Assembly (NCBI GenBank): GCA_902593795.1
Contig: CACJJR010000003.1
Coordinates: 23,626 to 87,625, forward strand
Reading direction: 5' to 3'
Source: an uncultured Candidatus Actinomarina sp.
Lineage (GTDB): Bacteria > Actinomycetota > Acidimicrobiia > Actinomarinales > Actinomarinaceae
Length of the DNA stretch: 64,000 bases
The notes under the pieces: model-generated
The model's input: only the letters and a program-made list of their open reading frames with translations
What the model was told of the DNA's origin: nothing
The model's database searches: none
Part shown: positions 10,834-11,637 of the stretch, piece by piece
Layout of the letters: every line of letters starts with the position of its first letter
How positions within the stretch are numbered: the first letter of the stretch is position 1
Program-made: the position numbers and the translations under genes

Positions 10834-11637
10834 TTGGAAACTAAAATTCAAAAACTTAAACGTTTCAACATAATAATGGGAACAGTTCATTTAATTCAAG
10901 GTGGATTATTGTTTTGGTTAGGTACTGTTGTTAATTCAGACTTTGTAGTACCACTTACCTTAACTCAGCTTGTCGGCGTAGGATCTCCTGAGGATCCCTC
11001 AAGTTTTGCATTAATTCCTGAGCTTGAAATTTGGACTGAGGTTACAAATTTTGGCCCGGCTGTTGCGACATTTTTGCTTGCATCTGCAGTTGCTCATTAT
11101 TTGATTTCGGGACCGTTTTATAACAAATACAAAGAAGACTTATCAAAGGGGATTAATAAAGTTAGATGGATTGAATATTCTATAAGTGCATCTGTAATGA
11201 TTGTATTAATTGCTCTCCTTGTAGGTATTTATGATGTTTGGGCTCTAGCTGGAATATTTTTTATGAATGCAGCAATGTGTTGGTTTGGCTGGATGATGGA
11301 GGTTCATAATCAATATACAGACAAAGTAGATTGGACGAGTTATATTATGGGGTGCTTAGTTGGTGTAGCGCCTTGGATATTTATTTTTGTAAATTTAATT
11401 GGTGATGGAGTTGCTACAGATTCAAACCCACAGGGAGTTCCACAATTTGTAGTTTGGATATTTGTAAGTATATTTTTATTCTTTAATACTTTTTCAATAA
11501 ATATGATTTTGCAATACAAGCAGGTTGGAAAGTGGAAAGATTATTTGTATGGAGAAAGAGCCTATATATGGCTTAGTCTTTTAGCCAAAACCTGTCTTGC
11601 GTGGCAAGTTTTCTTTGGTACCTATCAACCAAATTAA
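10834..11637 (+). CDS. Heliorhodopsin (retinal-binding 7-TM photoreceptor, inverted topology family)
   Basis: Colinear with heliorhodopsin 48C12 as I remember it:
- FNIIMGTVHLIQ (His in TM1).
- SAVAHYLIS (His in TM2).
- RWIEYSISASVMIVLIA (counterion Glu, codon 11173-11175).
- GERAYIWLSLLAKTCLAWQVFFGT (Schiff-base Lys, codon 11587-11589).

Preferred start is TTG 10834, 6 nt after GGGGGAG. The ORF-track start at 10738 adds a non-homologous 32-aa extension. Confidence 0.9.
   Translation: METKIQKLKRFNIIMGTVHLIQGGLLFWLGTVVNSDFVVPLTLTQLVGVGSPEDPSSFALIPELEIWTEVTNFGPAVATFLLASAVAHYLISGPFYNKYKEDLSKGINKVRWIEYSISASVMIVLIALLVGIYDVWALAGIFFMNAAMCWFGWMMEVHNQYTDKVDWTSYIMGCLVGVAPWIFIFVNLIGDGVATDSNPQGVPQFVVWIFVSIFLFFNTFSINMILQYKQVGKWKDYLYGERAYIWLSLLAKTCLAWQVFFGTYQPN

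Follow-up and report, generated by a model that had tools for sequence, protein, structure and literature searches.

A strongly conserved heliorhodopsin gene of Candidatus Actinomarina and two opposite-strand micro-genes beside it

We analysed a stretch of 64,000 nucleotides (nt) from an uncultured Candidatus Actinomarina sp. (contig CACJJR010000003.1 of assembly GCA_902593795.1, positions 23,626 to 87,625), here called the window. An earlier inspection of its letters and open reading frames (ORFs), which we call the sequence-only reading, had proposed that it holds a heliorhodopsin gene in an otherwise housekeeping region. Heliorhodopsins (HeRs) are light-sensing retinal membrane proteins. 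The gene and the features that mark it are the following, in window coordinates:

10821..10827, plus strand: Shine-Dalgarno-like GGGGGAG, with a 6-nt spacer to the TTG start (from reading the sequence)
10834..11637, plus strand: HeR coding sequence, 267 amino acids (aa), TTG start, TAA stop at 11635-11637
11173..11175, plus strand: codon GAA of Glu114, the predicted Schiff-base counterion, which pairs with E107 of HeR 48C12 in a HMMER alignment
11587..11589, plus strand: codon AAA of Lys252, the predicted retinal Schiff-base lysine, which pairs with K241 of 48C12 in the same alignment

The gene, from Candidatus Actinomarina (Actinomycetota, Acidimicrobiia), codes for a true heliorhodopsin. Its product matches Pfam PF18761 with E=1.7e-87 and 293 bits (cut-off 26.7), over residues 8-263 of the protein and positions 1-241 of the 242 of the profile, and it scores 308 bits (cut-off 100) against NF038020, the NCBIfam HeR equivalog. 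At the level of sequence, then, the match to the family is far beyond chance, and the proposal of a heliorhodopsin gene is borne out by two models with curated cut-offs. Among proteins of known structure, the best sequence matches were TaHeR (6is6, E=4e-66) and 48C12 (6su3, E=1e-55). The sequence-only reading had aligned three peptides by eye to 48C12, almost without gaps: the three peptides do occur in the translation and the 48C12 strings quoted beside them agree with PDB 6su3, and the alignment is indeed nearly gap-free in the helices, but not in the AB and EF loops, which are gapped. The Glu in transmembrane helix (TM) 3 and the Lys in TM7 that it had singled out are homologous to their 48C12 counterparts in a pairwise alignment, and both are invariant in an alignment of 70 HeR sequences.

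For comparison we used 53 species-level genomes (the relatives), obtained by a scan in which one genome per species was retained; counts out of 54 are these plus the window. Although the ORF list opens the HeR frame mechanically at an earlier GTG (10738), the TTG at 10834 is, on comparison with these genomes, the real start. The 53 related genomes have a start codon (ATG, GTG or TTG) at the equivalent position, one codon upstream in one clade, a G-rich Shine-Dalgarno sequence precedes it in relatives as well, and at least one relative (locus L005) has no in-frame upstream extension of the gene.

The AlphaFold2 model of the protein, built from the 70-sequence alignment, has a mean predicted local distance difference test score (pLDDT) of 89.4 and a predicted template-modelling score (pTM) of 0.82. 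Seven long helices are seen in it, and the AB loop forms a hairpin of two strands (38-49 and 59-71). In Foldseek comparisons the template-modelling scores of the model were 0.87/0.93 to TaHeR (6is6) and ~0.80/0.84 to 48C12, and only ~0.5-0.6 to type-1 rhodopsins; as modelled, the window HeR thus has a seven-transmembrane rhodopsin fold, nearest to that of the solved HeRs. We then counted charges using the helix boundaries of the model. Apart from K252, 14 Lys and Arg residues lie in the N-terminus and the BC, DE and FG loops, while the AB, CD and EF loops and the C-terminus hold none, together with nine Asp or Glu. Because all 14 basic residues fall on one side and none on the other, the positive-inside rule predicts an inverted topology with a cytoplasmic N-terminus, as the sequence-only reading had expected. 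The basic residues of the predicted intracellular loops (ICLs) include K98, K100, K105, K109 and R111 in ICL1 and K229, K233, K235 and R242 in ICL3. The same pattern, positive inside and negative outside, is common to 48C12 (Kovalev et al. 2020) and the window HeR.

Residues named as structurally important in 48C12 by Kovalev et al. (2020) were mapped onto the window protein through the HMMER alignment. Overall identity to this prototype, which comes from a freshwater actinobacterium (PDB 6SU3, 6UH3), is 43%, and 38 of the 45 named residues are identical, with 3 more replaced conservatively. In the core, K241, E107, S237, S111 and S76 of 48C12 correspond to K252, E114, S248, S118 and S84. The window protein thereby shows the family marker of a single Glu counterion in TM3 (E114) with a Ser (S248) where type-1 rhodopsins have their second Asp. 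Polar residues of the Schiff-base cavity, a defining trait of the family, are kept. The cavity residues H23, H80, N101, Y108, N16, E230, R104 and Y92 correspond to H19, H88, N108, Y115, N12, E241, R111 and Y99. The hydrophobic barrier L12, L96 and L227 becomes L8, L103 and L238, and the region of E149 is kept as well (E149, Q216, Y226 and W105 to E156, Q227, Y237 and W112). The differences from 48C12 are Q213 to M224, I142 to C149, S112 to A119, Y179 to N187 at the dimer interface, and S242 to T253.

The best solved relative is TaHeR, from a Thermoplasmatales archaeon (PDB 6IS6, 7U55; 46% identity), with which the window protein shares a Met at the position of 48C12 Q213 and a Tyr at that of 48C12 F162, beside the fenestration. 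Compared with TaHeR, the AB beta-hairpin of the window protein is ~10 residues longer and its EF loop 8 longer and, unlike TaHeR, it belongs to a bacterial, marine and mesophilic host. The motif of the fenestration and carotenoid site is found complete (Y170, C174, G177, F217, N218 and S221), and the lateral fenestration known from TaHeR, 48C12 and Cv06 is predicted from these residues to be present in the window HeR.

All 53 relatives have the HeR in the same place, with identities of 83-99%, and almost all of these genomes bear the labels Ca. Actinomarina, Actinomarinales or OCS155. The next matches in the genome scan fall to ~50% identity and belong to archaea, Patescibacteria and other Actinomycetota. 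In a protein database, too, identity drops from 74-97% straight to 55%. All close relatives are Ca. Actinomarina or Acidimicrobiia records, in keeping with the restriction of HeRs to monoderms described by Bulzu et al. 2021 (PMC8612252). GC content of the window is ~34%, in a range of ~32-39%. Invariant positions make up 182 of the 267 residues, including most of the extended EF loop of the lineage, and pairwise dN/dS is 0.01-0.06, around 0.03, values which are approximate since dS is large and partly saturated. As judged by these sequence comparisons, the gene is under very strong purifying selection across the order.

The genes around the HeR, with the profiles that identify them, are these:

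3559-4161, plus strand: thymidine kinase
4164-4646, minus strand: DUF454 gene
4687-5370, minus strand: DtxR/IdeR-like metal repressor (Pfam and NCBIfam)
5650-6666, minus strand: ferrochelatase (Pfam and NCBIfam)
6793-7911, plus strand: solute-binding protein of an ATP-binding cassette (ABC) importer (Pfam SBP_bac_6/11)
8013-9566, plus strand: fused two-domain ABC permease (Pfam BPD_transp_1, twice)
9566-10588, plus strand: ABC ATPase (Pfam ABC_tran and TOBE_2)
10580-10774, minus strand: 64-aa orphan ORF
11644-11715, minus strand: 23-codon ORF
11735-12823, minus strand: type I phosphodiesterase / nucleotide pyrophosphatase family gene, convergent with the HeR gene (Pfam PF01663, E=7e-14)
12904-22837, plus strand: complex I operon nuoA-B-C-D-H-I-J-K-L-M-N, 11 subunits (Pfam, per ORF)
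22841-26018, plus strand: Methyltransf_28, M48 peptidase, rhodanese and PfkB kinase genes

The rest of the window carries tRNAs, a sigma factor, nusG, rpoB/C, fusA, tuf, ribosomal proteins, secY, adk, map, rpoA, truA and glmM; with nuo, rpoBC, the ribosomal proteins and secY present, the description of a housekeeping region was apt. A glmS ribozyme/riboswitch (Rfam RF00234, 84.5 bits; 62618-62765, plus strand) directly follows the glmM-like phosphoglucosamine mutase gene, an ordinary arrangement, and no Rfam RNA family was found near the HeR gene.

Measured as mean identity to the window copy over the 53 genomes, HeR (92%) is second in the locus only to NuoB (94%). NuoD follows with 89%, then the three ABC transporter proteins with 77-81%, the 64-aa protein with 65% and the phosphodiesterase-family protein with 54%. 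The gene of this last protein, although fast-evolving, is present in all 53 relatives. A tblastn search located the repressor in 43 of the 53 and the ferrochelatase in 27, some loci being too short to cover that region. The importer genes are the upstream same-strand neighbours of the HeR in all Actinomarina loci long enough, separated from it in the window by a 245-nt gap between the ATPase and HeR genes that holds a conserved opposite-strand gene. On the other side, nuoA lies on the same strand ~1.3 kb downstream in nearly all genomes (~2.1 kb in relatives with a DUF4349 gene), with two or three opposite-strand genes in between. The complex I operon lacks nuoE, F and G, the NADH-oxidising module, and has the same gene order in relatives; the literature suggests that such an 11-subunit complex I is an F420- or ferredoxin-linked enzyme.

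As for the substrate of the importer, no NCBIfam model reached its cut-off; there are scores from the 2-aminoethylphosphonate, polyamine, ferric and thiamine models alike. The label 'Fe(III)' is therefore not confirmed: it rests on the KEGG assignment of the published accounts and on the nearby repressor and ferrochelatase. Between the solute-binding-protein and permease genes lies a strong hairpin (7931-7982; 24-nt arms, 88% complementary, 4-nt loop, flanking T-runs). It resembles an attenuator within the operon or a stem that stabilises the mRNA, of the type that raises expression of the binding protein. The ~280-nt gap between the repressor and ferrochelatase genes (5371-5649) contains no ORF of at least 90 aa and is unusually long against a reported genome median spacer of ~3 bp. 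By eye it may contain an ORF of 39 codons, and inverted repeats of the form TTAAC/GTTAA are visible; it has no Rfam family, and similar repeats occur upstream of the binding-protein gene at ~6740-6775. Scanning the window with the IdeR/DtxR consensus (at most 3 mismatches) gave no box, and iron regulation of the HeR was rejected as a candidate. In the gap between the ATPase and HeR genes, consensus scans found no terminator-like site and promoter-like matches no commoner than in shuffled sequence; these scans decide nothing about co-transcription of the HeR with the importer.

Two very small genes on the opposite strand flank the HeR. The 64-aa ORF is divergent from it, with a 59-nt gap, and at the 3' end shares 9 nt with the ATPase gene. 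All 54 loci carry this ORF intact at about 64 codons, with 39-98% identity. No Pfam or NCBIfam family recognizes the protein, and a profile search among 1.84 billion proteins returned only 14 matches, the stronger of which are sequences of 64 to 94 aa resembling the Actinomarina copies. AlphaFold2 returns a two-helix hairpin (pLDDT 96.9), so that a soluble helical hairpin is predicted with high confidence. We also looked for homologues near distant HeRs with a hidden Markov model search of the six-frame ORFs of loci L055-L080, and rejected the idea with a best E of 0.09. The 45-68-nt spacer between this gene and the HeR is conserved among close relatives only and has no deep motif.

The second micro-gene, MALSYLGLLLVLVLIILFGRKLK, is convergent with the HeR and ends 6 nt past its stop in the window (0-7 nt in relatives). 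It has exactly 23 codons in 54 of 54 genomes, starting in the 53 relatives with ATG (48) or GTG (5), and shares its orientation with the phosphodiesterase-family gene 19 nt away. The peptide has an invariant N-terminal S-Y-(I/L/V)-G, a hydrophobic core that forms its single hydrophobic segment, and a basic C-terminus. Most copies resemble the N-terminus of TatA (TM helix, FG, KKL), and one clade has lost the FG. An ORF of this size is too short for most gene callers.

Most relatives carry, between the 23-codon ORF and the phosphodiesterase-family gene, a lipoprotein gene of the DUF4349 family (~264 aa, Pfam E=1.3e-35). An example is 10883-11677 (minus strand) of locus L001, whose HeR is 99% identical to that of the window. 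The window genome lacks it (site 11716-11734), as do ~18 other species genomes, a presence/absence polymorphism adjoining the HeR gene. We considered whether the sequence that follows the HeR is a remnant of this gene and rejected it, the 23-codon ORF being separate and present with or without DUF4349.

The gene, its neighbourhood and the question of its chromophore are already in the literature for the Actinomarina lineage, in three papers. Kovalev et al. 2020 (PMC7049168) describe a Ca. Actinomarina HeR flanked by two nuo clusters in the single-cell genome AG-333-G23, which is locus L050 of our set and whose HeR is 83% identical to that of the window. López-Pérez et al. 2020 (PMC7771536) note the HeR near an 11-subunit nuo operon, report no retinal synthesis genes in the whole order, and describe a type-1 proton pump, also retinal-dependent, that these cells retain and that is adjoined by a photolyase elsewhere in the genome. 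Bulzu et al. 2021 (PMC8612252; bioRxiv 10.1101/2021.02.01.429150) define a HeR cluster C11 with a putative transcription unit of afuABC, HeR, 11-subunit nuo, NDUFAF7, htpX, pspE and adenosine kinase, and raise the idea of energy metabolism being switched by light. Gene by gene this is the locus of the window (afuABC, HeR, nuo, Methyltransf_28/NDUFAF7-like, M48/HtpX-like, rhodanese and PfkB kinase), and nothing substantive differs, the window being without the DUF4349 gene of most relatives. The novelty of context that the sequence-only reading had implied thus falls away, since gene, context and the order-wide lack of retinal synthesis were all published. Neither opposite-strand micro-gene was found mentioned in the available text of the published accounts of the Actinomarina locus. 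The two micro-genes qualify the statement by Bulzu et al. (2021) that conservation around the HeR is confined to same-strand genes, and likewise that of Kovalev et al., made on HeR subfamily 1, that no conserved candidate transducer lies nearby.

Synteny around the HeR is kept in every locus of the order long enough to show it. Outside the order the picture is different: 26 distant HeR loci share no neighbour with the window except generic ABC ATPases several kb off and one Coriobacteriia contig, and on three long contigs that carry the nearest outgroup HeRs (~55% identity) the neighbours are an ATP-cone protein, a META-domain protein, or a sortase with a photolyase. Because the nearest outgroup HeRs have unrelated neighbours, the arrangement of importer, HeR and nuo represents a single evolutionary event. 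Its adjacency is thus weak evidence of function, and in an order with near-perfect synteny it says little. The exception is locus L077, a Coriobacteriia metagenome-assembled genome (SKMN01000024.1, ~16500-20000) where a run of nuoA, B, C, D and H, again with H next after D, starts 6.5 kb downstream of the HeR. It is the only distant HeR locus with a specific shared context, other Coriobacteriia HeR loci being without nuo.

What, then, does the protein do, and with which chromophore? Among window ORFs of at least 200 aa, Pfam found no polyprenyl synthase, phytoene synthase or desaturase, lycopene cyclase or beta-carotene dioxygenase family, which agrees with the sequence-only reading that crtE/B/I/Y and blh are missing from the window; a 251-aa ORF at 26015-26770 has no significant Pfam match, even at E<=1. 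Since the order is without a retinal pathway, the chromophore must be scavenged. We consider, with a probability of roughly 0.6, that the HeR is a non-pumping, light-dependent sensor or regulator using scavenged retinal. The fold, the chromophore-site residues, the predicted topology and the constraint are those described above, and the later steps we infer from characterised homologues. Retinal would be scavenged from seawater, probably entering through the TM5/TM6 lateral fenestration towards the outer leaflet, and would be bound, all-trans, at K252. Green light would then produce a long-lived photointermediate with no ion pumping, as in 48C12 and TaHeR, in which the Lys/Arg-rich cytoplasmic loops may alter their contact with a partner protein and so confer light-dependent regulation. 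Gene order suggests two candidate partners, the ABC importer encoded upstream and the 11-subunit complex I encoded downstream. There are precedents for HeR cytoplasmic loops acting on the product of a neighbouring gene, namely an ABC exporter (PMC11109279), glutamine synthetase and photolyase. The window itself differs from the HeR-glutamine synthetase and HeR-photolyase pairs, with neither family found by Pfam among its ORFs of at least 200 aa.

Several points weigh against such a sensor. Retinal binding, the photocycle and the lack of ion transport would all be carried over from homologues at 43-46% identity, and proton transport does occur in some viral HeRs. In a 2025 preprint, HeRs are argued to be light harvesters with two antennae and not sensors. 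Among the window ORFs near the HeR, Pfam found neither a histidine kinase nor a transducer nor any other signalling gene, and the model of partner regulation rests on a few in vitro studies from one laboratory.

If a partner is sought next to the gene, the HeR might bind the adjacent ABC importer ('afuABC', Fe(III)) and tune its ATPase or transport activity in the light, coupling iron uptake to daylight. The importer genes are immediately upstream on the same strand in loci long enough, a DtxR-like repressor and a ferrochelatase are nearby, and one transcription unit was proposed by Bulzu et al. (PMC8612252). The closest precedent is OcHeR-OmrDE of Ornithinimicrobium cerasi (Cho et al. 2024, PMC11109279), where light modulates the ABC transporter and where, as in the window, the HeR lies beside same-strand ABC transporter genes. 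OcHeR binds the transporter through Arg and Lys of ICL1 and ICL3, and the window HeR has such residues, ICL1 and ICL3 being Lys/Arg-rich in both proteins. However, OmrDE is a heterodimeric fused type-I drug exporter encoded in the HeR operon, whereas the window transporter is a binding-protein-dependent importer parted from the HeR by the 245-nt gap with its conserved opposite-strand gene. Further, the adjacency is a single evolutionary instance, the outgroup and the 26 distant loci having unrelated neighbours, and with the near-perfect synteny of the order it says little. The HeR is also far better conserved (92%) than the transporter (77-81%), and the substrate is unconfirmed, with no NCBIfam cut-off reached. 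We regard regulation of the importer as unlikely.

The HeR may, alternatively, not be a regulator at all but a device for energy or chemistry: a light harvester with retinal and a scavenged xanthophyll, an ion transporter, or a photo-enzyme whose substrate is an anion bound in the Schiff-base cavity. The carotenoid-binding-site motif of the 2025 preprint is present in full, and the organism depends on exogenous chromophores anyway, but carotenoid binding in HeRs is supported in that preprint by docking only. Work by Pushkarev in 2018 and Shihoya in 2019 reportedly found no ion transport in 48C12 and TaHeR, which counts against a transporter. With respect to the photo-enzyme, the 48C12 cavity residues that bind triangular anions (PMC7049168) are conserved in the window protein, although the authors of that paper themselves pose the idea as a hypothesis. 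Taken together, a role of this kind seems to us rather improbable.

Then there is complex I. The HeR as a light switch for the 11-subunit enzyme (possibly F420- or ferredoxin-linked), and hence for respiratory energy metabolism, would suit the position of nuoA downstream on the same strand in nearly all genomes, an adjacency noted by Kovalev et al. 2020, López-Pérez et al. 2020 and Bulzu et al. 2021, and the nuoABCDH genes 6.5 kb from the HeR of Coriobacteriia locus L077. Yet this is one evolutionary instance again: the other Coriobacteriia HeR loci are without nuo, two or three opposite-strand genes intervene in Actinomarina, and there is no biochemical precedent for a rhodopsin regulating complex I. 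This switch is, in our estimate, distinctly unlikely.

A more specific form of partner regulation would join the HeR and the two micro-genes, for the soluble 64-aa hairpin and a single-pass 23-aa peptide, in one light-signalling module, with one of the two small proteins acting as transducer from the HeR to the ABC importer, to complex I, or to both; we hold this to be a long shot. Least credible, to the point that we set it aside, is a relic that stays an apo-opsin without light function for lack of endogenous retinal, which the absence of retinal biosynthesis genes from window and order would allow but which is at odds with a dN/dS of ~0.03, with retention of the gene in 53 of 53 species-level genomes of streamlined ~1.1-Mb cells, with the invariance of K252 and the whole retinal pocket, and with the retinal-requiring type-1 proton pump that is kept alongside it according to López-Pérez et al. 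(PMC7771536).

HeRs are widespread and their physiological role is debated. Ca. Actinomarina is among the most abundant surface-ocean photoheterotrophs, with a ~1.1-Mb genome in which the HeR is strongly constrained yet no retinal synthesis is encoded. Since the gene is kept under constraint without retinal synthesis, the lineage is a good place to seek HeR function. That value was already concluded in the papers of 2020-2021, and the window adds no new context to it. What our analysis adds is modest: a measure of HeR conservation relative to the neighbouring genes, evidence that the order of importer, HeR and nuo arose once, and two micro-genes beside the HeR as candidate partners. If the light-signalling module with these micro-genes were true, the long-sought HeR transducer would have been found in one of the ocean's most abundant bacteria.

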